A stretch of 42,415 bases of DNA from Candidatus Alcyoniella australis (GCA_030765605.1 JAVCCG010000061.1:1-42415); one strand, 5' to 3'; shown: positions 435 through 38,544, counted from the stretch's first letter. Notes: a model not told the origin generated them from the sequence alone. Numbers and translations: made by a program.

Positions 435-719
435 TCAATCGGCGTCGTCGTCGTCGAAATCGGCGTCGCTGGCCGAATCCGCAGCGTCGCTATCGTCGTC
501 ATCGGAATCGTCGCTCTCGACTTCCGGCAGCGGCTCCTCGGTGAACCTGACTTCCCTGATGCGCGAGGCGAACAATCTCTCTTCGGGGCTCGGCGCTTCG
601 ACCTGGTCCGCGACGCACTTCGGGCAGACCTTGTCTGGTCGGCCCAGGTCGTAGAACTTGCAGCCACACTTGTAGCATTCGTGGCGCTCGCCGTACTCGG
701 GATGGACCGGGTGAATCAT
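435..719 (-). CDS. FYDLN_acid family (TIGR02300-like) zinc-ribbon protein with an acidic C-terminal tail
   Basis: CYKCGCKFYDLG...CPKC is two CxxC pairs flanking the FYDL(N/G) motif. The C-terminus ESDDSDDDDSDAADSASDADFDDDDAD is acidic. ATG at 719 has a GGAGG 5 nt upstream on the minus strand; the track ORF 435..767 extends the N-terminus without an RBS. Confidence 0.7.
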   Translation of the reverse strand: MIHPVHPEYGERHECYKCGCKFYDLGRPDKVCPKCVADQVEAPSPEERLFASRIREVRFTEEPLPEVESDDSDDDDSDAADSASDADFDDDDAD

Positions 720-802
720 GCTTTCCTCCAAGATTCCTCTCCTCATAGAGGAGCGGGAAACTACCAAAAAGCGGATCGGCTGTCTATAAGTTACTCAGCC
801 GG

Positions 803-6657: not shown

Positions 6658-8172
6658 ATGTCCAAAGCGTTGCGCCTGTTAACGGTCCTGTTGTGCTTGC
6701 TGATCCCGCTGGCGTTGGTCGCCTGCGATCAGGGCGCCGATGACGACGACGACGACCAGACCGCGGATGACGACGACCTTGACGACGACGATTTGGACGA
6801 CGACGCGGACGACGACGACGATACGCAGGACCCCGACTGGGATTTCATTGTCGACGAACAGGGGCGCGCGCTGATCTTGCACGGCTGCAACTTCGACGGC
6901 GGGGCCAAGTGGAACGCGGGCCTGCCGCCCCAAGGGGTCGAGCAGACGCAGAGCCTGTTTGGCGATTGGGGCTTCAACTTCGCGCGCTACTTAATTTTCC
7001 GGGCCGAGATCGACCCCGAGCCCGGCGTCTACAACGAGGACTATCTGGGCCAGGTCGAGACGCGGCTGGACTGGCTGGAGCAGGCCGGCATCCGCGTGGT
7101 GCTCGACATGCACCAGGACGTCTGGGGACCGGAGTTCCACAGCGGCGGCTCCGACGGCGCGCCGCCCTGGGCCACGATCACCGACGGAGTGCCGCACATC
7201 CCCTTTGCCCAGCTCCTCGGCGCCTGGGCCCTGGACTACCTCTCGCCCGCGGTGATGCGCGCCTTTGACAACTTCTGGGACTACGAGCTGCACCCCGAGC
7301 TGCAGGACCTCTACGCCGCAATGTGGGTCCACGTGGTGCAGCGCTTCAAGGATCACCCCAGCGTACTGGGCTACGACCTGATCAACGAGCCGTGGGAAGG
7401 GACCGGGATCTACAACCAGGGGCGCTTTGACCGCACCAAGTATTTCGAGTTCAACCAGCGGATGATCGACGCGATCCGCAGCGCGGACCAGGAGGGCTGG
7501 ATCTTCTACGAGCCGCGCGCCTTTGGCCCCAACCAGGGACTGCCATCGCATTTGCCCGCACTGGACGATCCGCGTCCCGGCGCGCAACGCCTGGCCTACT
7601 TCCCGCACATGTACTCGATCCTGGTCGAGCTTGAAGGCGGCTACGACCCGCTGCGCGATCCGATCCTCGAGGACTGGCCGCGCAACCGCACGATCGAGAG
7701 CGAGCTGCAGCGTGCGCCGCTGCTGGCCGGCGAATGGTCGTTGCTCACCTGGCCCGACCTGGAAAACCGCCTGCTGTTCAACGATGCGGCCCTGCGGATG
7801 TTCGAAAGCGCGACCTCGGGCTGGGCCTATTGGGATTGCGGCTCGTTCGAGCGCTCGCCGCTTGAGCTGCAAGAGCTGATCGCCTCGCCCTTTCCTCGCG
7901 CCGTGGCCGGTTGGCCCCTGGAGTACGGCTACGACCAAAGCGCGCGCGAGCTGAGCTTGACCTTTGAGGCGCGCGACAATGTCGAGGGACCGACCGAGAT
8001 CTATCTGCCGCTAAGCCGCTGCTGCCCTGACGGCTACGCAATCGAGGTCAGCGGCGTGGCGGAAGATGGCTGGCACAGCGAGTTTAACGACGATTCCCAA
8101 CTGCTCAGCATCTGGATCGATGAGACTTTTACCGAGGCCACAATCAGTATTTTTGCCGCACAGCCGCAGTAG
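6658..8172 (+). CDS. Lipoprotein: glycoside hydrolase family 5 domain, with a poly-Asp linker after the lipobox
   Basis: MSKALRLLTVLLCLLIPLALVAC is a signal peptide plus lipobox. It is followed by DQGADDDDDDQTADDDDLDDDDLDDDADDDDD. GH5 blocks: VVLDMHQDVWGPEF and GYDLINEPWEG (the NEP acid/base motif). GGAGG sits 4 nt upstream of the ATG at 6658. The track ORF begins at 6484, but the upstream residues have no signal peptide or RBS. Confidence 0.7.
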   Translation: MSKALRLLTVLLCLLIPLALVACDQGADDDDDDQTADDDDLDDDDLDDDADDDDDTQDPDWDFIVDEQGRALILHGCNFDGGAKWNAGLPPQGVEQTQSLFGDWGFNFARYLIFRAEIDPEPGVYNEDYLGQVETRLDWLEQAGIRVVLDMHQDVWGPEFHSGGSDGAPPWATITDGVPHIPFAQLLGAWALDYLSPAVMRAFDNFWDYELHPELQDLYAAMWVHVVQRFKDHPSVLGYDLINEPWEGTGIYNQGRFDRTKYFEFNQRMIDAIRSADQEGWIFYEPRAFGPNQGLPSHLPALDDPRPGAQRLAYFPHMYSILVELEGGYDPLRDPILEDWPRNRTIESELQRAPLLAGEWSLLTWPDLENRLLFNDAALRMFESATSGWAYWDCGSFERSPLELQELIASPFPRAVAGWPLEYGYDQSARELSLTFEARDNVEGPTEIYLPLSRCCPDGYAIEVSGVAEDGWHSEFNDDSQLLSIWIDETFTEATISIFAAQPQ

Positions 8173-8335: not shown

Positions 8336-10018
8336 GTGAGAAAACGCTTTTTCACGTTTACCGCCCTGGCCTTCTCAGTTATCTGTGTCATCGGCATCGT
8401 GGCGTTCTGCTCTTGCGGGACTGATGATGACGACGACGCGGACGACGATGACGACGATCTTGACGACGACGCGGACGACGATGACGACGACGGTTTCCCC
8501 TGCGTCTGGGACCAGGTACGAGCAGGACATTGGGTGCATGCGGTGAACTTGCCGTGGGACAACTATGGCACCGACTTCGGAGAAAGCGCCTGGGGCTATC
8601 GCGGATTGGCAAACCAGGGGCCTGCCGGATGGCGCTGCAAACACGACGACGACAGCCAAGGGTGTGCGAGTTTGGATTGGAACGACGGGAAGCTCGTGGT
8701 GAACTTGAGCTTGAATGCCTCAGATCAGCTCAGATCGAATGCAATAACTTACTATTGTTTTGAGGAATCGGCGGCTTTGCCCTCGGAGGGGACGATCGAC
8801 CTTCGCGGAAAAACAGTTGCCGCCCAGGCAAGCTTTCCTGCCGGAAGCCAGGGGCCCTCATCCGCTCCCAACGAAGTAGTCCTCTTTCTCCAGGACATCA
8901 ACTGGAATTGGGGACAGAGCGCGCCGCAGAACATCGTGCCGGGCGACATGACGTTGAGCGTCGTGCCCGACACCCTGCCGGATTTCGATGAGACGCAGGT
9001 CCGCTGCATCGGCATCAGCATGACTACCAACGACGAGGCGCCGGATGATTACACTTATGACGGCTCCTTCACCGTCGATTACGTGCAGTCGCCGCCCGAG
9101 ATAAACTTCCCCTACGACACCGCCCATACGCGCACAGAAGATGAACTGCTGGACATCGCGGGCCTCGGGGCCACGGCGACCCGCGTATGGCTTTTCGCCG
9201 ACGGCCGATCAGGACTGGCATTCGATCCGGCCAGCGGAGAGGTCAGCGGCCTTAATCAGTTTTTTAAAGATGATTTCGACGAACTGATACGTCTGGCTGA
9301 TTCAAGCCGGCTATATCTGATCGTCGTGCTGTTTGACTTCCTGATGGGCGGCTCGTCCCCGGTGGAGGAGCCGGGAATCTTCGGCCACGCGGACCTGATC
9401 ACCGACCCGGCCAAGCGCGATTCCCTGATCGGGAATGCGCTGATCCCGCTCTTTGAGGAGTACGGCGATCGGTGCGAAATATTGTCGTGGGAACTGATGA
9501 ATGAGCCCGAATGGCTGTTGATCAACGATCCCGACCACGTGACGATCCTCGCGGGAAAGAGGCCGTCCGAGATCGCCACCGGCGGCGCGGCCACCTTCGA
9601 CCAGATGACCGAGTTTTTCAACGCTGTTCTTGAGGCATACCAGACCGCCGTGCCCGGCGGGCAACAGCTTTTCACCGTGGGAAGCGCCAGCGAACAATGG
9701 GCCGATCAGTGGTACGAGGCGCTGAACATGGATCTCGGTCAATTCCATTTCTGGAACGGTCCCGCACAGATCGACGAAGGTCTGAGCTTCGATTTCACGC
9801 CGCCGATCGCCGGCGTGCCCAACATCATGGGCGAGTTCAGCTCAGAGGCCGATTGCTGCGAAATACTGGAATCCGCCCTTGAGCTGGATTACTCGGGAGC
9901 CTGGCCCTGGGCCTATCGATCCAAGGACGAATCGAGCTTCCGCATGCTGGGCGACGATTGCCGCGAGTGCATGCAGCAGTTTGCAGAGGAACATCCCGAA
10001 ACGGTTCGCTTCGAATAG
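8336..10018 (+). CDS. Lipoprotein: second glycoside hydrolase family 5 (mannanase-like) domain, with a poly-Asp linker
   Basis: GTG at 8336 is preceded by cAGAGG. The N-terminus (V)RKRFFTFTALAFSVICVIGIVAFCSCG is followed by TDDDDDADDDDDDLDDDADDDDDD. GH5 block: ILSWELMNEPEW. Confidence 0.6.
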   Translation: MRKRFFTFTALAFSVICVIGIVAFCSCGTDDDDDADDDDDDLDDDADDDDDDGFPCVWDQVRAGHWVHAVNLPWDNYGTDFGESAWGYRGLANQGPAGWRCKHDDDSQGCASLDWNDGKLVVNLSLNASDQLRSNAITYYCFEESAALPSEGTIDLRGKTVAAQASFPAGSQGPSSAPNEVVLFLQDINWNWGQSAPQNIVPGDMTLSVVPDTLPDFDETQVRCIGISMTTNDEAPDDYTYDGSFTVDYVQSPPEINFPYDTAHTRTEDELLDIAGLGATATRVWLFADGRSGLAFDPASGEVSGLNQFFKDDFDELIRLADSSRLYLIVVLFDFLMGGSSPVEEPGIFGHADLITDPAKRDSLIGNALIPLFEEYGDRCEILSWELMNEPEWLLINDPDHVTILAGKRPSEIATGGAATFDQMTEFFNAVLEAYQTAVPGGQQLFTVGSASEQWADQWYEALNMDLGQFHFWNGPAQIDEGLSFDFTPPIAGVPNIMGEFSSEADCCEILESALELDYSGAWPWAYRSKDESSFRMLGDDCRECMQQFAEEHPETVRFE

Positions 10019-10927: not shown

Positions 10928-11632
10928 TCAGCCGCCGAGGATTTGCGGGTTGAACGCCAGCACCACGCTGTTGCACAGCCCGTGGTAGAGGCCCGCGCCG
11001 AATACGCTGCCCGTGCGCTTGCGCATCCAGGCGAAGGCCAGTCCGGGCACAAAGGTGGCGACCGTGGCCGGGTTGAACGTGATCGCCAAATGCGCCAGGG
11101 CGAACAGCGCGGCGCTGAGCCAGACGTCCGGCCCGATCCGAACCCCGAGCAGCGTCGGCCCGCGATGGCCCCAACGCCGGGTCAGCGGGCTCTGAATCCA
11201 GCCGCGAAAAAAAATCTCCTCGGGCACGCCGATCACCAGGATCATCAGCGTCACACCTCGCACGTAACTCCAATCGAGACGCGCGGTCACGTGGTGATCC
11301 ATGATCAACCCGAACCAGACCACGTAGAGCACAACGAACAGCGGCAGCGTGGCCAGGGCGAACAGCAGCGAGACTTTCAGATCGTCGCGCCAACGATCGA
11401 GGCGCAGGCCGAAATCCTCCGGCCGTTGGCGGCAGAGGCGTATCAGCAGCAGCGGCAGATAGATCAGCAGCACGACCTTGCCCACCGCCGCCAAATCCGC
11501 GGTGATGCCCGGCAGGCGACGTGCCGCGTTGAGCGCTAAGAAGGCCACAATCAGCGCCGCCAGGCTGGCCAGTAGTTGCCGAATGGACGGCCGTAACGCG
11601 GCCTGTTGTTCGATGGAATGCTGTCGGGACAT
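10928..11632 (-). CDS. CPBP-family (CAAX protease-like) intramembrane metalloprotease
   Basis: EEIFFRG motif 1, FALAHL motif 2 and a HGLCN-like third motif. Multi-pass membrane protein. Confidence 0.75.
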   Translation of the reverse strand: MSRQHSIEQQAALRPSIRQLLASLAALIVAFLALNAARRLPGITADLAAVGKVVLLIYLPLLLIRLCRQRPEDFGLRLDRWRDDLKVSLLFALATLPLFVVLYVVWFGLIMDHHVTARLDWSYVRGVTLMILVIGVPEEIFFRGWIQSPLTRRWGHRGPTLLGVRIGPDVWLSAALFALAHLAITFNPATVATFVPGLAFAWMRKRTGSVFGAGLYHGLCNSVVLAFNPQILGG

Positions 11633-16733: not shown

Positions 16734-18231
16734 GCTTCCGGCCGGGTTTCCCGGCACGGTCGGTCTAAAATTTAACGAGCCGCTGATCTTCGAGCGCTCG
16801 GTCCCCGGACGTATCGGCCACAGCCTGCCGGCCCTCGACGTTCCGACCGCCAACCCGGCGCTGTACGTCGAGCCCGAGCTGCTGCGCGGCGAGGCTCCGG
16901 CCCTGCCCGAGGTCAGCGAGATTGACGCGGTGCGTCACTTCCACCGCCTCTCGGGCTGGAACTACGCGGTGGACAGCGGGATGTACCCGCTGGGCTCGTG
17001 CACGATGAAGTACAACCCGCGCGTCAACGAGGCGACCTCGCGTCTGCCGGGCCTGGCCCGGCTCCACCCGCTGCAACCGGTCCAGACCGCGCAGGGCGCG
17101 CTATCGCTGATGCACGAACTTTCGTCGATGTTGGCCGAGATCAGCGGCATGCACGCGGTGACGCTGCAGCCCGCGGCCGGAGCCCACGGCGAATTCAGCG
17201 GCCTGTTGATGATCCGCGCCTATCACACCAGCCGCGGCAACCCGCGCAGCAAGGTGTTGATTCCCGATTCGGCCCACGGCACCAATCCGGCCAGCGCCGC
17301 GCTGTGCAACTACAAACCGATCGAGCTCAAGTCCGGCCCCGATGGACTGCTCGACCCGTATACCGTGGCCGCTGCGATGGACGAAGAGGTCGCCGCGCTG
17401 ATGATCACCAACCCCAACACCCTGGGGCTGTTCGAGCGCAACATCCTCGAGATCGCCAAGATCGTCCACGACAAGGGCGGGCTGATCTACTGCGACGGCG
17501 CCAACCTCAACGCCTTGATGGGCGCGGCCAAGCCCGCGCACTTCGGCGCGGATGTGCTGCACTTCAACCTGCACAAGACCTTCAGCACGCCCCACGGCGG
17601 CGGCGGACCGGGTTCGGGCCCGGTGGGCGTGGTCGAGGCGCTCGAGCCGTTCCTGCCCTCGCCCGTGGTCGTCAAGTCCCAGCGCGACGGTGCGGATTAT
17701 TACGAGCTGGATTACGACCGGCCGCAGAGCGTCGGACGGGTCAAAGCGTTTTACGGCAACTTCCTGGTGATGGTCCGCGCCTACACTTACATCCGCGAGC
17801 TCGGCGGCGAGGGCCTGACCCGCTCGACGCAGATGGCGGTGCTCAACGCCAACTACGTCAAGGAACGGCTCAAGGAAGTTTTTAGCGTGGCGCACGACGC
17901 GACCTGCATGCACGAGTGCGTGTTCTCCGAGCAAAGCCTGGTCGAGCACGGCTGCCACACCATGGACCTGGCCAAACGCCTGATCGATTACGGCTATCAT
18001 CCGCCCACGGTCTATTTCCCCTTGATCGTCAAAGGCGCGATCATGATCGAGCCCACCGAGAGCGAGAGCGTCGAGTCGCTGGAGCAGTTCATCGAGGCGA
18101 TGCTGGCGATCCAACGCGAGGCGCAGACCGACCCCGAGTTGCTGCACAGTGCACCGCACTGCACGCGACTGGGTCGCCTCGATGAGGTGCGCGCGGTCAA
18201 GGATCTCGACGTGCGTTGGACCAAACGCTGA
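16708..18231 (+). CDS. gcvPB: Glycine dehydrogenase (decarboxylating) subunit 2 (PLP-binding)
   Basis: LIFERSVPGRIGHSLP...HFNLHKTFSTPHGGGGPG (the PLP-lysine region). ATG at 16708 overlaps the gcvPA stop by 26 nt. Confidence 0.9.
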   Translation: MSKSSTSCELPAGFPGTVGLKFNEPLIFERSVPGRIGHSLPALDVPTANPALYVEPELLRGEAPALPEVSEIDAVRHFHRLSGWNYAVDSGMYPLGSCTMKYNPRVNEATSRLPGLARLHPLQPVQTAQGALSLMHELSSMLAEISGMHAVTLQPAAGAHGEFSGLLMIRAYHTSRGNPRSKVLIPDSAHGTNPASAALCNYKPIELKSGPDGLLDPYTVAAAMDEEVAALMITNPNTLGLFERNILEIAKIVHDKGGLIYCDGANLNALMGAAKPAHFGADVLHFNLHKTFSTPHGGGGPGSGPVGVVEALEPFLPSPVVVKSQRDGADYYELDYDRPQSVGRVKAFYGNFLVMVRAYTYIRELGGEGLTRSTQMAVLNANYVKERLKEVFSVAHDATCMHECVFSEQSLVEHGCHTMDLAKRLIDYGYHPPTVYFPLIVKGAIMIEPTESESVESLEQFIEAMLAIQREAQTDPELLHSAPHCTRLGRLDEVRAVKDLDVRWTKR

Positions 18232-19868
18232 CCGGTTTCGTTTTCACGGCCGAGCACTGGGCCTGCGCCTTGAGCGCATTTATCTGGATCAGCGGCACGA
18301 CCGCGCTGCTCATCACACTGCTTAACAGGACCGACGCGCGCGAACGGCGCTCGGCGTTCTTCGGGCTGCTGCTGATCTGCGCGGCGGCCTACGTCCTGCG
18401 CCTGGCCGTGATCCCGCCCTGGATCTACGAGCCCTCCGGCGACGAGGAGCGGATGATCTTCGGCCCGTTCCTCGGCCAATGGCAGGTGTCCGCGCTGCCG
18501 CAGTCCAGCGGCCTGGCCGCCGACGTCTGGGCCTGGGCCTTTGGCGCGCCGCTACGGATGATGGGGATCGCTGCCGGCCCGCGCACCCTGCCCTGGATCA
18601 ACCAGGTCGCCACCCTGCCCGCCCTGCTGCTGCTGGGCCTGGCCTGCCACCTGATGACCGACCGCCGCTCCATGGCCTGGATCTGCACCGCGGCCGCCGC
18701 CATCAGCCCGCAGCTGATGTTCTGGTCGACCAGCGCCTACGACCTGGCCCCGGCGATCCCGGCCCTGGCGGCCTGGCTGCTGTGCCTGACCGTGCTGCTC
18801 GATCAACGCCGCACCCGGCGGTCGGCGATTCTGGCCGCAATCAGCGCCGCGGGCTGCTGCGTGTGGCTGGTGCTGTGCCGCGTGGAGCTGTGGCTGCCGG
18901 TCTGCGCGCTCCCCGCGACCCTGATCCTCGCCGCATTATTCATCCGCGAACAGCGGGCCCGCCGTTTGGCCGCGGCCGCGCTGTGCATCGTCTGTCTGGC
19001 GCTGGCCGTGCTGCTGCTCTCCTCAGCCACCGAGGCACGCACCGGGACCAAGGTCTTTGCCCTGGATCAGCTGCTGCTCAATTTCGACGCCAGCCGCTGG
19101 CTCAACTCGCCCTTTGGCGGCCTGGTCCCGCTGTTCCTGTCGGCCGCGGGCTATTTGGGCATCCGCAAGCTCGGGCCGTTCCCGGTCCGTTCGGCGCTGA
19201 TCGCCTCCTCGGTCGCGGGGTTGGCCCTGTGGGCGGTCTGCCTGGCGTACGACGGCTTTGCCTCCAAGTACGCGGTCTGGACCGTGCTGCTGCTCGCGCC
19301 GCTGTGGTCCGTGGCCATGTCCTGGCCCGCGCAGATCGCGCAACGCAAGGTCCCGGCCGTCGCGCTGACGCTGCTGATCGTCACCCTTGTGGCCCTGCCG
19401 CCGCTGTTGCGCTGGGGTAGCGACGTGCGCGTCACGGCCGACTCGTTCCACGGCCATGTGCATACCAGCGACATGCTCGAAATCCCGCAGGAAGTGTTGC
19501 TCAAGCAGCTCGAGGGACAGTTGGTCTTTGCCTCGCCCGGGCTGCACGACCCCCTGCGCGAGGCCGGACTGCTTGCTGACGGGATGCTGTTCGAGGCGAT
19601 GCAGCTGGTGGGGCCGCGCCGCCTGGAGCCCGAGCGCTTGCTGCGCATCGGCGAAGAGGGGAACGCCCTGCGGCTGGTCGCGCCCTACGATCACAAGCTG
19701 ACCGCCATCGGCTGGTACGACCGGCTCTACCGCGAGCGCGCACTGTTTAACATGCGGCCCGTGGCCCGCGGCGAGCTGCTGGGGCAGCCGGTGCTGCTCT
19801 ATCGACTGGAGCTGCGCCCCGGCGCGCGCCGGGCCCTGAGCTACTCGCGGTTTAAAATCGAGATCTAG
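18216..19868 (+). CDS. Polytopic membrane protein (hypothetical). The start overlaps the gcvPB stop.
   Basis: About ten hydrophobic helices plus a C-terminal soluble region. No family was recognised. The start is uncertain. Confidence 0.4.
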   Translation: MDQTLTGFVFTAEHWACALSAFIWISGTTALLITLLNRTDARERRSAFFGLLLICAAAYVLRLAVIPPWIYEPSGDEERMIFGPFLGQWQVSALPQSSGLAADVWAWAFGAPLRMMGIAAGPRTLPWINQVATLPALLLLGLACHLMTDRRSMAWICTAAAAISPQLMFWSTSAYDLAPAIPALAAWLLCLTVLLDQRRTRRSAILAAISAAGCCVWLVLCRVELWLPVCALPATLILAALFIREQRARRLAAAALCIVCLALAVLLLSSATEARTGTKVFALDQLLLNFDASRWLNSPFGGLVPLFLSAAGYLGIRKLGPFPVRSALIASSVAGLALWAVCLAYDGFASKYAVWTVLLLAPLWSVAMSWPAQIAQRKVPAVALTLLIVTLVALPPLLRWGSDVRVTADSFHGHVHTSDMLEIPQEVLLKQLEGQLVFASPGLHDPLREAGLLADGMLFEAMQLVGPRRLEPERLLRIGEEGNALRLVAPYDHKLTAIGWYDRLYRERALFNMRPVARGELLGQPVLLYRLELRPGARRALSYSRFKIEI

Positions 19869-19941: not shown

Positions 19942-22900
19942 CTAGCCGCAACAACCTGAGTCGTCGTCATCGTCGCCGTCCGAGGCGTCGTCGTCGTCAT
20001 CGTCGCCGGGTAAATCCGATACCGCGTTGGAGATGCGGCTTAAGTTCCCCTCATCGTCAGCGACACGCAGTGCCACGTGCAGCACGCCGGGGTCGGGCAC
20101 GATAAAGCTCTCGATTGATCCCGGCGGCTGAGGCGCTGCTCCGAACTCAAAGGCCTCTGCCGCGGCAAACTGTTCGACCTGCTCCAGATCGGCCGCGGGA
20201 TCGCGCGAGATGCGCACGTCATAGGACTGTGCCTGACCGCAGGTCCAATCATCTCCCGGCGCGGTGAAGGTCAGCTTGAGCCGCCTATCGCCGAGCCGTT
20301 CGAGCTGCAAGTCGGTGACGCGCGCGGGCGGCAGCGCGTCCAGGCCGTAGTATCCGCTGTTGTGCGGATCGTGGTGAAAGCGCGGCCAGTCGGCGTTCTG
20401 CTCGCCGTCAATGCAGGACGCGGCCCCGGTCTCCCAGGCGTAGAGCCAGCCCTCGTAGGTCGGCAGCAGCACCTCGAGCAGGCCATCGGCGTCGATGTCC
20501 GCGATCGCAGCGCTGCCCGTGATCCATTTCTGCGTGTACTTGGGCCAGCCCGGCGGCTGGATGCCGTCCACCGAGAACGCGTGCGCCAGGTAGCCGCTGG
20601 TCCCCAGCACCAGCTCGCGCGTGCCGTCCGCGTTGAGGTCGGCCGCGGCCGGGCTGTTGAACATCGGAAGGTCCTCCAGCTCCTCGATCAGCAGCCGCTC
20701 GTGGGGCGGGTCAACGTCGTTGGCCGCCAGCTTGGAGTTGATCAGGTTGAACCCCTCCTCGCCGATCTGCAGCACGGACAGCAGCGGGATCGAGTATTGC
20801 AGCCAGCCGTCGTTGTACAGCGAGGTGAACGCGCCGTGGGCGATGGAGGTCAGGCTGAGGCCGGTGGGCATGTACATCTCGTGGATCTTTTCGCCCGAGT
20901 AGTGCATCACCGCCGGGAACCAGCCCGGCGTGCCCAGGCCGATCCAGGCCTCGCCGTTGCCCAAGGCGATCACCGGCGAGGAGACGCCGCCCGCTGCGAA
21001 CGGCAGCGGGATCGCATCGCCCAGGGGCGCTGCGGGCGCGGCCGGCCAGTCGGGCAGAAACGTTCCCGCGGGATTGGCCCAGCCGTCGTGGTAGATCGCG
21101 TAGGCGCGGGTGGTGGCCAGCAGCCCCTCCTCGCAAATCTCGGTGGTCGCCACCACCACGGACGGATATTCGGACACGTCCGGATTCGCGTTCAGCGGAT
21201 CGAGCACACCCGCCGCCGGCGTGCTGCAAATCTGAGACGGCAGGCCGCTCCCCTCGCAGATCCGCTCGTCGCGCACGATCCCCTCGTCGCTGCGGCAGAG
21301 CACGGGCCAGCCGTAGAGCGGGTCGACCTGGCCGTTACCGTCCTGGTCCAGCGGCTTCCAAGCGTAGGCCTTCTGGTCGTTGGACGCGACCACGATCTCG
21401 AGCACGCCGTCGAGGTCGAGGTCAACGAGCACCGGCGAGCCGTAGACGCCGTTACCATGGCCAAAGGCGAGCGAGCTGGAGTTGTCCGGCGCATCGGTCT
21501 GCACCGGAAACCCGGGCAGGATCGGCGAGGGCTGGTGCAGGTTGCCGTCAGCGTGAATTGCAAACACCCGGCCCAGGGCCGTGGCGGCCACGATCTCGGG
21601 CTCGCCGTCGCCGAACAGATCGCCGATGGCCACCGAGCCGATGATCCCGTCGCTGCGCCATTGGTCGTAGCTCGAGAGGTCCACGGGGAAGCCCGCAAGC
21701 TCGGACCAGCCGGAGCCGTCAACGTCGCGGGTCAGAACGTGGACCAGGCCGTCGCCCGTGCCCATCACGATCTCGGGCAGGCCGTCGGCCGCGCCGTCGA
21801 GGTCGTAGACAATGGGCGAGAACCCGGGGGAGGCGCCGAAGTAGTACGGGAAGCCGGCGGCCAGGCCGTTCACCGGATCGTCGTCCACGTGGACCGAGAT
21901 CGACTTGCGCGCCTCGCCGCGCACCTGTTCGTCGATCCCGGCCTCGTACCACGCGCGCACGCGCAGCGAGACCTCGAAATCGTAGCGCGACTGGGGCACT
22001 CCGCGCATCTGGTCGGGCGGAAAGAGTTGGGCGATGGGCACCTGGGCAATCAGGCCCTCGATCCGCTCGTCGGACGTGCCCTGGAACACGGTCTGGTACT
22101 CATTGTCCAGCGGCTGCTTGCCGCGGGCCAGCTGCACCTCGTAGGAGAACGGATAGACCCGGGCGTCGATCTCGCCCTCGAGCTCGAAGGTCGCGCTCGC
22201 CGCGGTATCGAAGGTCTCCCACCAGCGCGGATAGGTGATGCGCACCTCGGGCGGAATGCGCGGCTCGATCCCGCGTTGCTCGTCGCCGAGCATCAGCAGC
22301 GCACGCTCGAGGTCCGGCCGGCCGTAGCCGAAGTGCTCGTCCCAGCCGGGCTGGCAGACGTTGAGCAGCGAGGCCACGGATGCGCAGTGGCTCTCGATAT
22401 CGTCCGCCGACTGGATCAGCAGCTGGAACAGCTCACCCGCGCTGAGCTCGATCCCCTGCTCCAACGCGTAGCTCTTGATCAGGGCCATGGCGCCGGTGGT
22501 GGTGCCCGTAGCGTCGGAGGTGCAGGCGGTGTCGGCGGGCACTGCCACGTGGGCGTGGGTGCCGAAGTTGGTGCAATAGGTCTCGACAAAGCCGAACGAT
22601 CCGAGGTTGAAGATCCCCACCAGGTCCACCGGGATGATCGGGAACAGCGCAGTGACCGCCACCACGTCCTCCATCGCGGCCGGAGCCCAATGGTGCATGC
22701 TCATCTCGTCGCCCTGGGGTGCGGCGATCAGCACCCCGGCGTCGTAGGCCTCCATCACCGCCCGATGCGCTTGGTCCGAATAGTTCAGGGCCACGCCGGA
22801 ATGGTTGATCACGTCCGCGCCCATCGACACCGCGTAACGCACGCCCGCGGCGAACAGGTCGTAGTTGTAGATCACCGCGTCGCCAACCCGCACCTGCATC

Positions 22901-23910
22901 ACGCGGCAGTCGGGGCAGACTCCGGGCCGATTGCCGATGCCGTTGTTGCCGCGCGCCGCGGCCAGCTCGCACATCCCGTGGCCGTGGGCCCCCTCGGGGA
23001 AGTCGTCGACCCCGAGCACCTCGTTGGTGTTGCGGAAGAAGTCCCAGCCGCTGATGTCGTCGACCAAGCCGTTTTTATCGTCGTCAACGCCGTCGGAGAA
23101 CTCGGCCAGTAGATCGCCGACGTTGATCGCGCGGTCCAGCGGCTCCACGCGCGGATCGTCGGCATAGTCGTCCACGTCAAAGCGGCCGTCGCCGTTGCAG
23201 TCGTAGTCCGCGCAGACGCCCGACGCGGTCTGCGGCAGGGGCAGCTCGCCGGAGTTGATGAACAGCGCGATGCGCAGGTCCTCGTCCTCGTAATGCTTAA
23301 GTCCGTCGTCGACCACCGCCACCAGCACATCGGGGCTGCCGGTGCTGTACTTCCAGGCGCCGGTGACGTTGATCCCCGGAATCATCCACGGCCCCTCGAC
23401 AGCAGACTCGGGCTCGATCGGGTTGAAGCCCATCAGCACGCTGGTCTCGGTGAACATTGCGAACGGATCGCCCGGATCGTAGATCGGGATCTCGAAGTCG
23501 TTGGGGATGTTGCACACGAACAATGCGCCGAAGGGGTACGCGCCGTCGAATGGATCGCCGGACGCGGAGTGCAGAGCGTTGCCCACGTGCAGCTCGATCC
23601 GCTCGCCCCAGGGCCAGGCCGCACTCGGCGTGAAGACCACTGTGTCGTTGGCGTGCACAATGCTGCTTAGTACCAGCGAGCCGGCCAGGTGCGCATCATC
23701 GCCACCCAGCGCAACGAAGAACGTCGAATCGCCCAGCGTGGCCCCTTCCAGGGAGTCGGAGAAGCGTACTGACAGCGGCGTGTCGCCCTGAACCAGCTTG
23801 CTCTGGAAGGTCGGAAACTGATCGACAATCGACAGCGCCGCGGCGCCCGAGGCGGCCAGCGCGATCGAACACAGCGCGACGAAAAGAACGGCAATCGTAC
23901 GTGACGTCAT
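19942..23910 (-). CDS. Large secreted protein (1322 aa): S8 subtilase-like peptidase domain plus FG-GAP/integrin-alpha-like beta-propeller repeats. Acidic C-terminal tail ending SGCCG.
   Basis: Signal peptide MTSRTIAVLFVALCSIALAASGAAA from the ATG at 23910. Subtilase D/H/S blocks: VAVVDDGL, HGHGMCELAAARGNNGIGNRPGVCP, ACTSDATGTTTGAMALIKS (aligns to GTSMASPHVAG). Repeated D-x-D/N-x-DG-x-x-E motifs (DLDLDGVLEIVV, DLNADGTRELVL, DIDADGLLEVLL) are FG-GAP-like. The C-terminus is DLPGDDDDDDASDGDDDDDSGCCG. Confidence 0.7.
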   Translation of the reverse strand: MTSRTIAVLFVALCSIALAASGAAALSIVDQFPTFQSKLVQGDTPLSVRFSDSLEGATLGDSTFFVALGGDDAHLAGSLVLSSIVHANDTVVFTPSAAWPWGERIELHVGNALHSASGDPFDGAYPFGALFVCNIPNDFEIPIYDPGDPFAMFTETSVLMGFNPIEPESAVEGPWMIPGINVTGAWKYSTGSPDVLVAVVDDGLKHYEDEDLRIALFINSGELPLPQTASGVCADYDCNGDGRFDVDDYADDPRVEPLDRAINVGDLLAEFSDGVDDDKNGLVDDISGWDFFRNTNEVLGVDDFPEGAHGHGMCELAAARGNNGIGNRPGVCPDCRVMQVRVGDAVIYNYDLFAAGVRYAVSMGADVINHSGVALNYSDQAHRAVMEAYDAGVLIAAPQGDEMSMHHWAPAAMEDVVAVTALFPIIPVDLVGIFNLGSFGFVETYCTNFGTHAHVAVPADTACTSDATGTTTGAMALIKSYALEQGIELSAGELFQLLIQSADDIESHCASVASLLNVCQPGWDEHFGYGRPDLERALLMLGDEQRGIEPRIPPEVRITYPRWWETFDTAASATFELEGEIDARVYPFSYEVQLARGKQPLDNEYQTVFQGTSDERIEGLIAQVPIAQLFPPDQMRGVPQSRYDFEVSLRVRAWYEAGIDEQVRGEARKSISVHVDDDPVNGLAAGFPYYFGASPGFSPIVYDLDGAADGLPEIVMGTGDGLVHVLTRDVDGSGWSELAGFPVDLSSYDQWRSDGIIGSVAIGDLFGDGEPEIVAATALGRVFAIHADGNLHQPSPILPGFPVQTDAPDNSSSLAFGHGNGVYGSPVLVDLDLDGVLEIVVASNDQKAYAWKPLDQDGNGQVDPLYGWPVLCRSDEGIVRDERICEGSGLPSQICSTPAAGVLDPLNANPDVSEYPSVVVATTEICEEGLLATTRAYAIYHDGWANPAGTFLPDWPAAPAAPLGDAIPLPFAAGGVSSPVIALGNGEAWIGLGTPGWFPAVMHYSGEKIHEMYMPTGLSLTSIAHGAFTSLYNDGWLQYSIPLLSVLQIGEEGFNLINSKLAANDVDPPHERLLIEELEDLPMFNSPAAADLNADGTRELVLGTSGYLAHAFSVDGIQPPGWPKYTQKWITGSAAIADIDADGLLEVLLPTYEGWLYAWETGAASCIDGEQNADWPRFHHDPHNSGYYGLDALPPARVTDLQLERLGDRRLKLTFTAPGDDWTCGQAQSYDVRISRDPAADLEQVEQFAAAEAFEFGAAPQPPGSIESFIVPDPGVLHVALRVADDEGNLSRISNAVSDLPGDDDDDDASDGDDDDDSGCCG

Positions 23911-24052
23911 CGTGAGCACTCCGGTCGTAATGTGGCAGGCGAGCCTATCCAAGCGGCATTTAGCCTGGATTATTTATCAAGTTTCGTCAAATATTGCGGT
24001 AGCTGAATTTGACCGCTGAACAAATCGGGAATCCACGATATGATTTAAGATC

Positions 24053-25714
24053 ATGAGCCCCAAACTATCACCACGCGAGGAGCTGATTCGGATTCAGCGC
24101 ATGCTGGTCGAGCGCTACCGCGACGACATCGAGCGCACCCTCGAGGACAGCTCGGGCCTGCTCAAGGTCTATCAGCAGGAGCACGACGCCGAGGTCGAGA
24201 GCTACGAGCGGATCTCGGGCAAGGCCGAGCTGATCTCCGAGGTGATCAACGCCGGATTGGTCTACGTCGGCGACTTTCACAGCCTGCGCGCCAGCCAAAC
24301 CACGTTCCTCAAGTTGATCCGGGAAACCGTGCGCATCCGGCCGAAAATCTGCCTGGCGCTCGAGGCGTTCAACGCCTCGGACCAGCACCACCTCGACGCC
24401 TATCTCAAACGCCGGATCAAATTTACGACACTGTTGCGGCGCGTGGACTTCGACCGCACCTGGGGCTTCGGCGCGGACGTCTACGAGTCGATCCTCGGCC
24501 TGGCGCGCGAACGCGGACTGCCCGTGGTCGGCATCAACCACAAGGTCGGCGGCAGGCACGCGCTGGTTAAACGCGACGAGGGCGCGGCGCGAATAATCGC
24601 ACGGCTGAGCAGTGAGCATCCGGAGCACATCGTCTTCGTGCTCGACGGCGAACTGCACGTGGCCGACTGCCATTTGCCCTCCAGGGTGCGCGCGCTGCTC
24701 GCGTCCCAGGGGATCGAACGCCGACGGCTGATCCTCTATCAGAACCCGGAGCAGATCTACTGGCTGATCGCCGAGCGCAAACTCGAACAGGTTGCCGACG
24801 TGGTGCGGCTCGCTGATTACCGCTACGCGCTTTTAAGCTCCACGCCGCTGGTGATGTACCAAAGCTACCTCAACTGGCTCTACGACCAACAGGAGCTGGT
24901 GCAAGGCACGCATCCGGGCTGGACCGACGGAGACAGCGTGGACTACAACTCGCAGGTTCACGATCTGGTGCAGATCATCGCCGAGTTCCTGGGAATCACC
25001 GAGGTCGCGTTGGACAACTTCAGCGTCTACTGCGTTTCGGACCTCGACTTCCTTGAGAGCATGATCAGCGAGGGATTCAACCGTGAGCAGATCGCGCAGA
25101 TCAAGCAACAGATCCTCAAACGCGAGAGCTATTTCATCGTCGGCCGCAACATCATCTACCTCGCCTCGCTGAGCGTTGACCACGCGGCCGAGGAGTCCAC
25201 GCACTACATCAACGCGCGTTGCGCCGGGCTCGATCAACGCGAACACAGCGCGCGCGAGGACTTCTACCAGCGCGTGATGCGCGAGGCCCTGGGATTTTTC
25301 GGCAGCATGGTGATCAATCCCAAACGCCAGTTTTACGACATCGACGACTTCACCGAGATGCTCAGCACGCGCGCCGAACCGACCGAGGAGCGCAACCGCG
25401 AGCTGTACCGCATCAGCCGCTACGTGCTGTTGCACAAGGAGTACGAGCGCGAATATTTGGCGGGCAGACGCCGTGCCACCAAGCGCTACAGCGCAATCTG
25501 GTCCCAGCCGTTCGACATCCACCTGGGCACGGCCCACGGCCTGGGCTACATGCTCGGGGAGCGAATGTTCCAATCCGTGGGCTGGGGGATCATCGAGCGT
25601 TCCGAGGTCAAGCGACTGTTCTTTGACGATTTCAAACGCCGCGGCAGCGCCCAACGCGCGTACATGGACCTGGTGGCGCGCCTGATCGACGCACCCTCCG
25701 CCCGCACGTTTTAA
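24053..25714 (+). CDS. ChaN-like (Tiki/TraB/GumN superfamily, Cofac_haem_bdg-type) N-terminal domain protein with an uncharacterised C-terminal half
   Basis: The pattern VYVGDFHSLRASQTTFLKLIRE...ICLALEAF...LDAYL...GLPVVGINH matches the ChaN/PF04187 layout (GEQH...ALEMF...A.N). Family assignment is from memory, not a search. Confidence 0.45.
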   Translation: MSPKLSPREELIRIQRMLVERYRDDIERTLEDSSGLLKVYQQEHDAEVESYERISGKAELISEVINAGLVYVGDFHSLRASQTTFLKLIRETVRIRPKICLALEAFNASDQHHLDAYLKRRIKFTTLLRRVDFDRTWGFGADVYESILGLARERGLPVVGINHKVGGRHALVKRDEGAARIIARLSSEHPEHIVFVLDGELHVADCHLPSRVRALLASQGIERRRLILYQNPEQIYWLIAERKLEQVADVVRLADYRYALLSSTPLVMYQSYLNWLYDQQELVQGTHPGWTDGDSVDYNSQVHDLVQIIAEFLGITEVALDNFSVYCVSDLDFLESMISEGFNREQIAQIKQQILKRESYFIVGRNIIYLASLSVDHAAEESTHYINARCAGLDQREHSAREDFYQRVMREALGFFGSMVINPKRQFYDIDDFTEMLSTRAEPTEERNRELYRISRYVLLHKEYEREYLAGRRRATKRYSAIWSQPFDIHLGTAHGLGYMLGERMFQSVGWGIIERSEVKRLFFDDFKRRGSAQRAYMDLVARLIDAPSARTF

Positions 25715-33494: not shown

Positions 33495-35399
33495 ATGTTG
33501 GCGTTTCGCGAAAAGCACCTGTGGCTGCTGCTGCTGGCGGCGTTGTCGTTATTGGCCCTGGTCGCGGCCGGCTGTTCGGTCGGCGACGACGACGACGACG
33601 ATGACGACGATGACGACGATGATTTCGAGCTTGACGGCAATATCGTCGCGCCGCAGATCGACCCCACGGACTGCCTGACCGACGACGCCAAAGAGGCGGT
33701 CGAACTGGCGCCGGCCTGGCTGCGCACCGAGATGATCCTCAACCTGTGCGCTTTAGCGGACGATAAGCAGGACCTGGCCGCCGAGCTGGTGCTGGGCTAT
33801 ACCGACCCCAAATACATCGACGAGCTGGCGTTTTTAGCGGCCCACGTGGGCAAGACCGACTGGAACTACCCTTCCCTGGACATCGACCTGTTCTACGACA
33901 ACGTCGTGTCGGTCTACGCCGCGGACGAGCAGCTGGACTACGTGACCCTGATCGACGAGGGCGATCCGCTGACCGACGACGACTTCTTCACCACGGCCGA
34001 ATACAGTTCCTTTGACAGCTCGGGCAAGGCCCAGACCGTGCGCGTGGATCCCTATTACTACTACTGGTTCGTGGTCCATCCGCGGCTGGAGGACGAGGGC
34101 CCGCGCTACATCGACCCCGAAACCGGCGGCAGCGCCGATCCGCCCGACGGCGTGTTCTGGCGCGACTACCTGCTCAACCACTCCGACGATCTGTGCCCGG
34201 GCACAATCGACAATCAGACCGATTTCGAGGATCCGGAAAAGACTACCTGGGTGAGCTGCTCGGTGCTCGCCGATCTGCTCGCGGGCGTGGACACGGTCTG
34301 GGAGGGAACTGACGAAACAATCGACAATGGTGCCATTGGCTTAATCAGCTACTGGATCGACGAGGCGATGTGGTTCTTCAGCTATACTCGCCGGCCGGTG
34401 CAGCCCGTGGCGATCTACTCGGGCCATGTGGGGCGTTGCGGCGAGCACGCCGACCTGACCTCCGCCGCCACGCGCGCGGCGCTGATCCCCGCGGCCAACA
34501 TCGCCTCCTATGCCAACGACCACACCTGGAACGAGTTCTACGACTTCCTCTGGGTGCAGTACGAGCCGGTCAACGACATGGTTAACGCACCCAACGCCTA
34601 CGACACCTGGGGCAACGGCACCAAGGGCGCGTACCGCACGCGCGGCGACGGCTTCGCCGAGAACGCCACGTCGCTGTACACCACAACCGGCACCCTCGAG
34701 ATCACCGTGGTCGACTCCGCAGGCAACCCGGTGGACGAAGCGGTGGTGATCGCCAGCGGCAAATATGGCGGAAGGCAGATGGACCACACCATGAGCGTCA
34801 CCGACCAGAGCGGCTTCACCAGCTTCGAGGTCGGCGACGAGAACTACGTCTACCTCGAGGTCCGCTCGCCGCTGGCCAATTTCCCCGCCGAGCAGGTGAT
34901 CAAGAAGCGCATCAATGCCGGCCAAACCTATGAGGGCCAAATCGAGCTTGATGCCGAGCTTAAGACCCTGGACATCGCGCAGCCCGAGGACTACCAGGGC
35001 GCGGGCGTGGTCACGCTCGAGGTCGGCCTGATCGACGCGGTGCGTTACGTGCGCAACCAGGGGATCGTCGGCACCAATATCTTCACTCAGTCCTACGACG
35101 ACGTGCTGCTGCCGCTGTACATGGTCGACGCGCAGAACTACGCCCTCTACCAGGACGGCGAGCAGTTCGTTGCCCACGCCCTGACCTTTGATGCCAACGG
35201 CGAGGCGCAGTTCGACCTGCCCCACGGCGGCGACTGGATGCTGTTCGTGAGCAACTACTCGGGCGTGAGCAACTACATCACCGGCGCGTTGGCAGTGCAG
35301 ATCGTCAACGCCGCCACCGACGAGGTATTCGACTCGGCGCAGGTCGAGCTGTTCCTCGAGCCGGGCGATCTGGCGCTGTTTGAATTAAACGGATTGTAG
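33495..35399 (+). CDS. Lipoprotein: transglutaminase-like cysteine-protease core domain, with a 13-Asp linker after the lipobox
   Basis: The N-terminus MLAFREKHLWLLLLAALSLLALVAAGCSVG is followed by DDDDDDDDDDDDD. Transglutaminase-like core: GRCGEHADLTSAATRAALIPAANIASYANDHTWNEFY (a Cys...His...Asp/Asn arrangement). C-terminal Ig-like / CarboxypepD_reg-like beta domain (TGTLEITVVDSAGNPVDEAVV). Confidence 0.6.
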   Translation: MLAFREKHLWLLLLAALSLLALVAAGCSVGDDDDDDDDDDDDDFELDGNIVAPQIDPTDCLTDDAKEAVELAPAWLRTEMILNLCALADDKQDLAAELVLGYTDPKYIDELAFLAAHVGKTDWNYPSLDIDLFYDNVVSVYAADEQLDYVTLIDEGDPLTDDDFFTTAEYSSFDSSGKAQTVRVDPYYYYWFVVHPRLEDEGPRYIDPETGGSADPPDGVFWRDYLLNHSDDLCPGTIDNQTDFEDPEKTTWVSCSVLADLLAGVDTVWEGTDETIDNGAIGLISYWIDEAMWFFSYTRRPVQPVAIYSGHVGRCGEHADLTSAATRAALIPAANIASYANDHTWNEFYDFLWVQYEPVNDMVNAPNAYDTWGNGTKGAYRTRGDGFAENATSLYTTTGTLEITVVDSAGNPVDEAVVIASGKYGGRQMDHTMSVTDQSGFTSFEVGDENYVYLEVRSPLANFPAEQVIKKRINAGQTYEGQIELDAELKTLDIAQPEDYQGAGVVTLEVGLIDAVRYVRNQGIVGTNIFTQSYDDVLLPLYMVDAQNYALYQDGEQFVAHALTFDANGEAQFDLPHGGDWMLFVSNYSGVSNYITGALAVQIVNAATDEVFDSAQVELFLEPGDLALFELNGL

Positions 35400-38389: not shown

Positions 38390-38464
38390 TGGTGCCCCAG
38401 GGAGGGATCGAACCTCCGCACCCGGCTCCGGAGGCCGATGCTCTATCCACTGAGCTACTGGGGC
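38390..38464 (-). tRNA. tRNA-Arg (anticodon CCG)
   Basis: The reverse complement gives GCCCCAGTAGCTCAGTGGATAGAGCATCGGCCTCCGGAGCCGG...GGTTCGATCCCTCCCTGGGGCACCA. The cloverleaf folds by hand. The anticodon loop is CTCCGGA. CCA is encoded. Confidence 0.85.
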
Positions 38465-38468
38465 ATGA

Positions 38469-38544
38469 TGGTGGACGGTAGCGGACTCGAACCGCCGGCC
38501 TCTGCCTTGCGAAAGCAGCGCTCTTCCAACTGAGCTAACCGCCC
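38469..38544 (-). tRNA. tRNA-Ala (anticodon CGC)
   Basis: The reverse complement gives GGGCGGTTAGCTCAGTTGGAAGAGCGCTGCTTTCGCAAGGCAG...GGTTCGAGTCCGCTACCGTCCACCA. The G3:U70 wobble is the Ala identity element. The anticodon loop is TTCGCAA. CCA is encoded. Only 4 nt separate it from tRNA-Arg. Confidence 0.85.

Follow-up and report, generated by a model that had tools for sequence, protein, structure and literature searches.

A helix-less, Cys-containing C-terminal tag on secreted proteins of Candidatus Alcyoniella australis and related genomes, possibly derived from the MYXO-CTERM class

The C-terminal tail described here belongs to a secreted serine peptidase encoded in a 42,415-nucleotide stretch of DNA (the window) from Candidatus Alcyoniella australis (GCA_030765605.1 JAVCCG010000061.1:1-42415), and it consists of a run of Asp residues followed by a Cys pair next to the stop codon. 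The organism was recovered in Ace Lake, from the anoxic zone, and belongs to Candidatus Lernaellota (= FEN-1099), an uncultured phylum for which the breakdown of proteins and polysaccharides in anoxic waters has been inferred; the paper on this phylum does not mention the tail (PMC9324843). The gene and its parts are the following:

19942..23910, minus strand, stop codon included: secreted Big_5 / S8 subtilase / FG-GAP propeller gene, 1322 aa (open reading frame list, Pfam)
23833..23910, minus strand: N-terminal signal peptide MTSRTIAVLFVALCSIALAASGAAAL, type-I-like (sequence read by eye, hydrophobicity heuristic)
22381..23331, minus strand: Peptidase S8 domain, about residues 194-510 (Pfam and NCBIfam matches, alignment with PDB subtilases)
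20401..21813, minus strand: FG-GAP/VCBS beta-propeller, about residues 700-1170, with approximate boundaries (FG-GAP_3 and weak propeller matches)
19957..20016, minus strand: acidic linker DLPGDDDDDDASDGDDDDDS (from the sequence), short compared with the median of 47 residues in tagged proteins of related metagenome-assembled genomes (MAGs)
19945..19956, minus strand: terminal Cys motif GCCG, with TAG immediately after it at 19942-19944

The open reading frame (ORF) starts with ATG, a longer version with a TTG start at 23952 being possible, and its product is 100% identical to the NCBI protein P0001 from the Ca. Alcyoniella australis MAG, described as 'S8 family serine peptidase'. Comparisons with Pfam gave 51.6 bits for Peptidase_S8 (the gathering score of PF00082 is 21.8) and 46 bits for FG-GAP_3 at residues 1091-1148 (cutoff 26.9), and Big_5 was slightly under its cutoff. 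The candidate catalytic triad, D201/H309/S465, was assigned from column conservation and from alignment to PDB subtilases and is invariant across 49 aligned homologs; together with the Pfam matches, this bears out the combination of subtilase triad and FG-GAP repeats that a first-pass annotation had proposed from the DNA alone. The oxyanion-hole position is occupied by Asp401 instead of Asn, and this Asp is also invariant in the 49 homologs; the same change occurs in the PC2 proprotein convertase. The signal peptide contains ...FVALCSIALAASGAAAL and departs from the canonical lipobox [LVI][ASTVI][GAS]C. The protein ends with DLPGDDDDDDASDGDDDDDSGCCG, which is followed by TAG and has 24 residues, not 25 as it was originally counted. 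There are no basic residues in this tail, and the stop codon is placed one residue past the Cys pair.

The ortholog set analysed comprises 44 proteins with 39-56% identity to the 1322-aa protein. An acidic run with CxC (26 proteins) or CC (10 proteins) at the end is present in 36 of them, themselves 40-56% identical, and every one of these 36 has two Cys among its final 7 residues. The number of residues past the last Cys in these short forms is 0 (20 proteins), 1 (4), 2 (8), 3 (2) or 4 (2), and the acidic linker varies freely in length and sequence. In another seven orthologs, the place that the tag has in the short forms is taken by GCGC(SQ), followed by a spacer, then a transmembrane helix and finally basic residues; acidic residues within the last 60 positions are 2-6 in these long forms versus 9-38 in the short ones. 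One of the 44 is truncated. The ortholog P0045 (956 aa, from an NCBI MAG labelled 'Deltaproteobacteria bacterium') has an Arg/Thr/Ser-rich end resembling an out-of-frame poly-Asp (GAY)n, and a frameshift or assembly error within the acidic linker is likely in this case.

More distant homologs, with about 30% identity and many of them labelled Myxococcales, finish with a classical MYXO-CTERM signal. In a neighbour-joining (NJ) tree made without the tail, long and short forms are intermixed and at least about four switches are implied: the sister group of the 1322-aa protein is a long-form clade (P0002/3/6/12), and P0013 and P0017 are nested among short forms. Therefore, both forms are evolutionarily interchangeable.

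To what extent the tag is used beyond this family was analysed with a DNA pattern encoding DDDxGCGC-stop, which was scanned over 185,579 species genomes and over viral contigs. At least 120 loci were found in the species genomes, and among the matches listed at least 127 ORFs that are 150 aa or longer combine an acidic tail with a Cys end, all in nine MAGs, two of which are named FEN-1099. The tagged ORFs per MAG are at least 30 in DAIMDW, 27 in DAIPLW, 17 in DAINPV, 16 in CAZEDX, 13 in JAOSJX, 7 in both CAXXWT and CAZPJD, and 5 in both JACKCT and CAYSHR. Outside these nine MAGs, the matches listed include about a dozen junk ones, whose ORFs, with two exceptions, measure 10-47 aa, and the viral contigs gave 3 junk matches; a chance or low-complexity artefact is ruled out by these 3 viral matches and by the short ORFs outside the nine MAGs. 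The GCCG-stop form of the window was found in about 19 long ORFs from metagenomes of JGI and ENA, of which ten belong to Ga0272444. The first-pass annotation had contemplated that the tail could be unshared or poorly conserved in orthologs, and it had proposed to search for other proteins finishing with an acidic run and a terminal Cys motif: many of them exist in the nine MAGs and in metagenomes, and 36 of the 44 orthologs carry this type of tail. Judging by the 36 short-form orthologs and by the concentration of the DNA-pattern matches in nine MAGs, the tail occurs far beyond chance.

Regarding the composition of the tag, Asp accounts for 56% of the linkers in related MAGs; their median length is 47 residues and the quartiles are 38/47/68. 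ORFs adjacent to the tagged ones show further ends, namely GGCA, GGCS, GCCGC, GCGCGC, CGCGG, GCCG and GCCGL, and among the acidic-tailed ORFs of the fetched loci Cys is present within the last 8 residues in 133 of 141, being absent in the other 8. The genes L024:5894-7222 (+), L043 and L196:429-1811 (-) form one orthologous family that ends in ...GGCA, ...GGCS or ...GCCG depending on the lineage, which suggests that a single terminal Cys may suffice. No helix is hidden past the stop codon: in the 126 tagged genes considered, the hydrophobicity of the in-frame downstream sequence is no higher than that of the other frames, so both readthrough and a hidden downstream helix were rejected. Selenocysteine or a recoded stop was also rejected, because all three stop codons are in use (TGA in 84, TAA in 27 and TAG in 16 of the tagged ORFs).

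The same MAGs hold a few tripartite tails, as in L084, which has GGCGG, a helix and RRKK. Moreover, two adjacent plus-strand ORFs of 161 and 174 aa in L097 (CAZPJD010000140.1) show poly-Asp followed by GCGGCG, then a spacer and a transmembrane helix, and finally RREGK, so that both styles of tag are combined in a genome where the short form is in use too. A C1-peptidase/FG-GAP neighbour from a long-form lineage, L207:12352-15180 (-) (Ga0120401_1001684), ends with a helix and RRK and has no GCGC-type motif directly ahead of the helix; this end may be a different C-terminal signal.

The tag caps many unrelated families of signal-peptide-bearing proteins in Lernaellota-type MAGs. Among the matches listed, a signal peptide was recognised by a heuristic in 84 of the 97 full-length tagged ORFs, and the same was observed for the 9 full-length GCCG-tagged ORFs from metagenomes (9/9). 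Pfam comparisons of 53 tagged proteins revealed Kelch, PKD and BNR/sortilin propellers, peptidases of the C25, M14, S8 and C1 families, FG-GAP and SBBP, whereas the NCBIfam matches include families that bear the names myxosortase-dependent M36 and MXAN_6640. A T1SS/RTX-type (type I secretion system) acidic C-terminal signal was considered and rejected, since the cargo proteins bear N-terminal signal peptides.

The MYXO-CTERM signal is defined in the literature as tripartite and as confined to Myxococcota and Bradymonadales, and its signature motif contains an invariant Cys, often within GCGC (Haft 2023). It is thought that this Cys is lipidated, Lgt being the leading candidate, and that the protease MrtX then cuts distal to it (PMC11980579; bioRxiv 10.1101/2023.06.07.544157), which makes an end in ...GCGC the predicted end of a mature MYXO-CTERM protein. 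The enzyme modifying the Cys is still unknown, and the proteins with this signal need type II secretion (T2SS) (PMC11980579). The tag resembles MYXO-CTERM (TIGR03901) in several respects: a Cys motif, commonly GCGC and in the window GCCG, which fits the motif, lies at the C-terminus of signal-peptide-bearing proteins, and dozens of cargo proteins from many families are found per genome, the counts for the tag coming from related MAGs. However, the transmembrane helix and the Arg cluster are absent from the tag, which ends 0-4 residues past the Cys, the motif comes after a long poly-Asp linker and the hosts are Lernaellota/FEN-1099 instead of Myxococcota or Bradymonadales. In addition, TIGR03901 gave no match with the tail at E<=1 (its curated cutoff is 20 bits), whereas the distant homolog P0061, taken as control, gave 31.6 bits.

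Other known signals are further from the tag. No sorting domain was matched by NCBIfam in the whole 1322-aa protein, and no tail-specific family was obtained with NCBIfam on the tail or with NCBIfam and Pfam on the 53 tagged proteins. GlyGly-CTERM/rhombosortase, PEP-CTERM/exosortase, PGF-CTERM/archaeosortase and the CTERM signals JDVT, Synerg and CGP are likewise short C-terminal tags on many secreted proteins, and in these tripartite systems a dedicated membrane protease is matched to the tag; nevertheless, the helix and basic cluster that they require are absent here, as are their motifs and any match with their hidden Markov models (HMMs). It had been stated at first that the tail is not PEP-CTERM, LPXTG, T9SS-CTD or GlyGly-CTERM, and the NCBIfam models agree with it. 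The idea that it is an unrecognised sorting signal was right in part, as the tail behaves as a sorting or modification tag and is at the same time related to a known class through the GCGC of MYXO-CTERM. No description of the tag was found in the literature on MYXO-CTERM and myxosortase, Lernaellota, C-terminal Cys with poly-Asp, or Asp-rich lipoboxes. Within the model libraries and literature searched, the tag is a previously undescribed variant of the Cys-containing C-terminal sorting signals.

Two further types of ends invite comparison. The CAAX and Rab ends of eukaryotes (CAAX, CC, CXC, CCX, CCXX, CCXXX; Rce1) also have one or two Cys in the last five residues and no helix, and we take the endings of the tag (CxC, or CC plus 1-4 residues) to resemble the Rab motif repertoire. 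A CPBP/Rce1-family protease is common to the CAAX system and Alcyoniella, the eukaryotic one trimming the residues past the lipidated Cys. This is an analogy only: the tagged proteins are Sec-exported and not cytosolic, so their modification would be extracytoplasmic, and the upstream region is poly-Asp versus polybasic or hypervariable; no prenyltransferase, the soluble enzyme modifying such cytosolic ends, was found, none having been searched for. On the other hand, the N-terminal lipoproteins processed by Lgt and LspA (in Bacteroidetes with the export signal K-(D/E)2) resemble the tag in having Cys beside an acidic run at a terminus, and they differ from it in that the terminus is the opposite one and the tag has no lipobox or signal-peptide helix beside the Cys. 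Three genes of this kind are present in the window:

33495..35399, plus strand: transglutaminase-like lipoprotein, lipobox VAAGC followed by SVG and 13 Asp (sequence, Pfam)
6658..8172, plus strand: lipoprotein of glycoside hydrolase family 5 (GH5), lipobox LVAC followed by DQGA and poly-Asp blocks (translation, Pfam Cellulase)
8336..10018, plus strand: probable lipoprotein, GH5-like, …IVAFCSC followed by GT and poly-Asp blocks (translation; GTG start picked by eye)

Poly-Asp comes right after the lipobox Cys in 20 of the 46 lipobox ORFs recognised by a heuristic in the window and in the loci from related MAGs. The lipoprotein N-termini in these MAGs are Cys-Gly-Asp(n), the mirror image of the tag, Asp(n)-Gly-Cys. 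In lipoproteins of Bacteroidetes, acidic residues beside the lipid-bearing Cys act as a surface-export signal (PMC5080379). An acidic theme common to the tail, the lipoproteins and a FYDLN_acid protein of the same window had been pointed out before: it holds for the three lipoprotein genes, whereas the FYDLN_acid protein (435-767, minus strand) is probably unrelated to the tag. This protein has a zinc-ribbon N-terminus and its acidic tail belongs to the Pfam family; neither a signal-peptide-like N-terminus nor a terminal Cys was seen in it.

The search for a linked sortase-like gene, which had also been proposed at the outset, led to a myxosortase-like protease within the window:

10928..11632, minus strand: myxosortase-like CPBP (Rce1-type) intramembrane glutamic protease, 234 aa (NCBIfam, motifs, AlphaFold model)

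The myxosortase models are the best-scoring NCBIfam families for this protein, with 98.8 bits for Mrt_core (NF040914; cutoff 100), 120 for MrtX (180), 132 for MrtP (250) and 113 for MrtC (195), all of them under the equivalog cutoffs. The motifs EExxxR, FxxxH and HxxxN are invariant in the alignment, and for the AlphaFold model (pLDDT, the predicted local distance difference test, 86.4) the one real match among PDB structures is MmRce1 (4CAD; probability 1.00, TM-score 0.52). This protease is the candidate for the processing of Cys-containing C-terminal signals in Alcyoniella. Its location amid housekeeping genes matches what has been published for myxosortases, which are unlinked to their substrates (bioRxiv 10.1101/2023.06.07.544157). 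Homologs with 27-33% identity are found in apparent ileS-lspA-lgt-CPBP-rluD operons, at L126:8675-10666 (JACOUP010000008.1) and L202:828-2738 (JACPIZ010000139.1), and also at L127 and L128, in which the start of the CPBP gene overlaps the end of lgt; JACOUP contains another lgt as well, 4.6 kb upstream. These operons give genomic support to the published suggestion that the Cys in substrates of myxosortases is lipidated by Lgt.

Taking all this into account, we propose that the tag is a C-terminal sorting and anchoring tag of Sec-exported proteins and a helix-less derivative of the MYXO-CTERM class, with a probability of roughly one half. Of the roles that had been suggested for the Cys pair (lipidation, metal binding or crosslinking), lipidation is the one favoured by the context. 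Once the protein is exported, a lipid would be added to the thiol of one terminal Cys or of both, possibly by Lgt or an Lgt paralog, in agreement with the proposal made for MYXO-CTERM. The CPBP protease may trim the residues past the last Cys (G in this protein; GS, GSD or GLSQ elsewhere) in the same way that Rce1 trims CAAX, whereas the tags ending exactly in ...GCGC would already have the predicted post-cleavage end of MYXO-CTERM and cleavage would be unneeded. Beside the lipidated Cys, the poly-Asp could form an extended tether of anionic character or could determine surface export, with the same role as in the N-terminal Cys-Gly-poly-Asp lipoproteins of the phylum. As a result, hydrolases and propeller proteins would be displayed on the surface and held by their C-terminus.

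Several points weigh against this proposal. Lipidation of the Cys is putative, even in MYXO-CTERM; there is nothing obvious to hold an exported C-terminus without a helix near an inner-membrane transferase, and Lgt normally needs a lipobox within a membrane-embedded signal peptide. Only two tagged proteins were seen in Alcyoniella itself, the 1322-aa protein and its paralog P0039, the proteome-wide evidence coming from related MAGs. Within the window, 8.3 kb separate the CPBP gene from the tagged gene, and no lgt is near the former; no CPBP homolog was found by tblastn in 850 kb of fetched loci from the MAGs with GCGC-stop, and the MAGs of the lgt-CPBP operons (JACOUP and JACPIZ) are at most possible carriers of the tag. 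Besides, signal peptides and lipoboxes were called by simple heuristics.

It is conceivable, although unlikely, that the Cys pair attaches the proteins without any lipid, linking them by a disulfide, a thioether or a metal bridge to a partner in the envelope or S-layer or to metal-sulfide particles, while poly-Asp would bind Ca2+, Mg2+ or mineral surfaces. CxC and CC pairs count among the classic motifs for metals and disulfides, the binding of cations and minerals by poly-Asp is generally known, and the absence of a helix would be no obstacle. The host also comes from anoxic lake water (PMC9324843). However, such attachment leaves unexplained the swap with GCGC, helix and basic residues in orthologs, the single-Cys ends (GGCA, GGCS) of some orthologous families and the mirror-image lipoproteins; moreover, stable disulfides would be improbable in a strict anaerobe.

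The typical secreted hydrolases found among the cargo could also be read as an indication that the tag is purely a recognition signal for export across the outer membrane, by a T2SS-like or unknown translocon, after which it might be clipped and the cargo released unanchored. The dependence of MYXO-CTERM proteins on the T2SS (PMC11980579) and the surface export driven by acidic residues beside the lipid-Cys in Bacteroidetes (PMC5080379) agree with it, but the Cys kept specifically at the extreme end points to thiol chemistry and not to charge alone, and the interchange with helix-anchored forms suggests anchoring, so that we consider this signal-only function quite improbable. Finally, the great variation in the length of the linkers and the clear loss of the helix and Arg parts would fit a poly-Asp serving the enzymes themselves (as a Ca2+ reservoir, solubility brush or pro-region-like inhibitor) beside a Cys motif that is a roleless relic of a lost MYXO-CTERM, which is very hard to believe because decay would be expected and yet Cys is kept in nearly all the acidic-tailed ORFs, two Cys are kept in every short-form ortholog and the same end appears on many unrelated families.

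The sorting and anchoring function proposed above admits a bolder version, which is offered tentatively: Lernaellota, and perhaps a few other lineages, could possess a hitherto unrecognised bacterial pathway of C-terminal lipidation without a membrane-spanning signal, in which trimming by CPBP would be optional and poly-Asp would serve as surface tether. The free Asp(n)-Gly-Cys-x-Cys end of an exported soluble protein would then be lipidated in the periplasm, in a CAAX/Rab-like manner. The tag would be a genetically pre-cleaved MYXO-CTERM, with the modification of Cys uncoupled from helix-dependent recognition.

In the LPXTG, PEP-CTERM, PGF-CTERM, GlyGly-CTERM and MYXO-CTERM signals alike, a motif is combined with a helix and a basic cluster. 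A tag that is reduced to a Cys motif and nonetheless borne by dozens of proteins per genome calls into question the assumption that recognition requires the helix, and natural substrates without helix offer a direct route to test the modification of Cys independently of cleavage. Furthermore, the lspA-lgt-CPBP operons bear on whether Lgt modifies the Cys of MYXO-CTERM, and the tag extends myxosortase-type biology past Myxococcota and Bradymonadales. From a practical point of view, an HMM or a regular expression for the tag would allow the annotation of the surface proteome of an uncultured phylum.

As for the surroundings of the tagged gene, a plus-strand gene at 18216-19868 is convergent with its 3' end and encodes a 550-aa polytopic membrane protein without Pfam matches, the sole and weak match being that with the putative glycosyltransferase family LA_3751/LA_3752 (18 bits). 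The divergent neighbour on the other side (24053-25714, plus strand) has a product of 553 aa in which a ChaN/Tiki-type (Cofac_haem_bdg) domain is present. At 38390-38544 on the minus strand, the genes for tRNA-Arg(CCG) and tRNA-Ala(CGC) are arranged in tandem.

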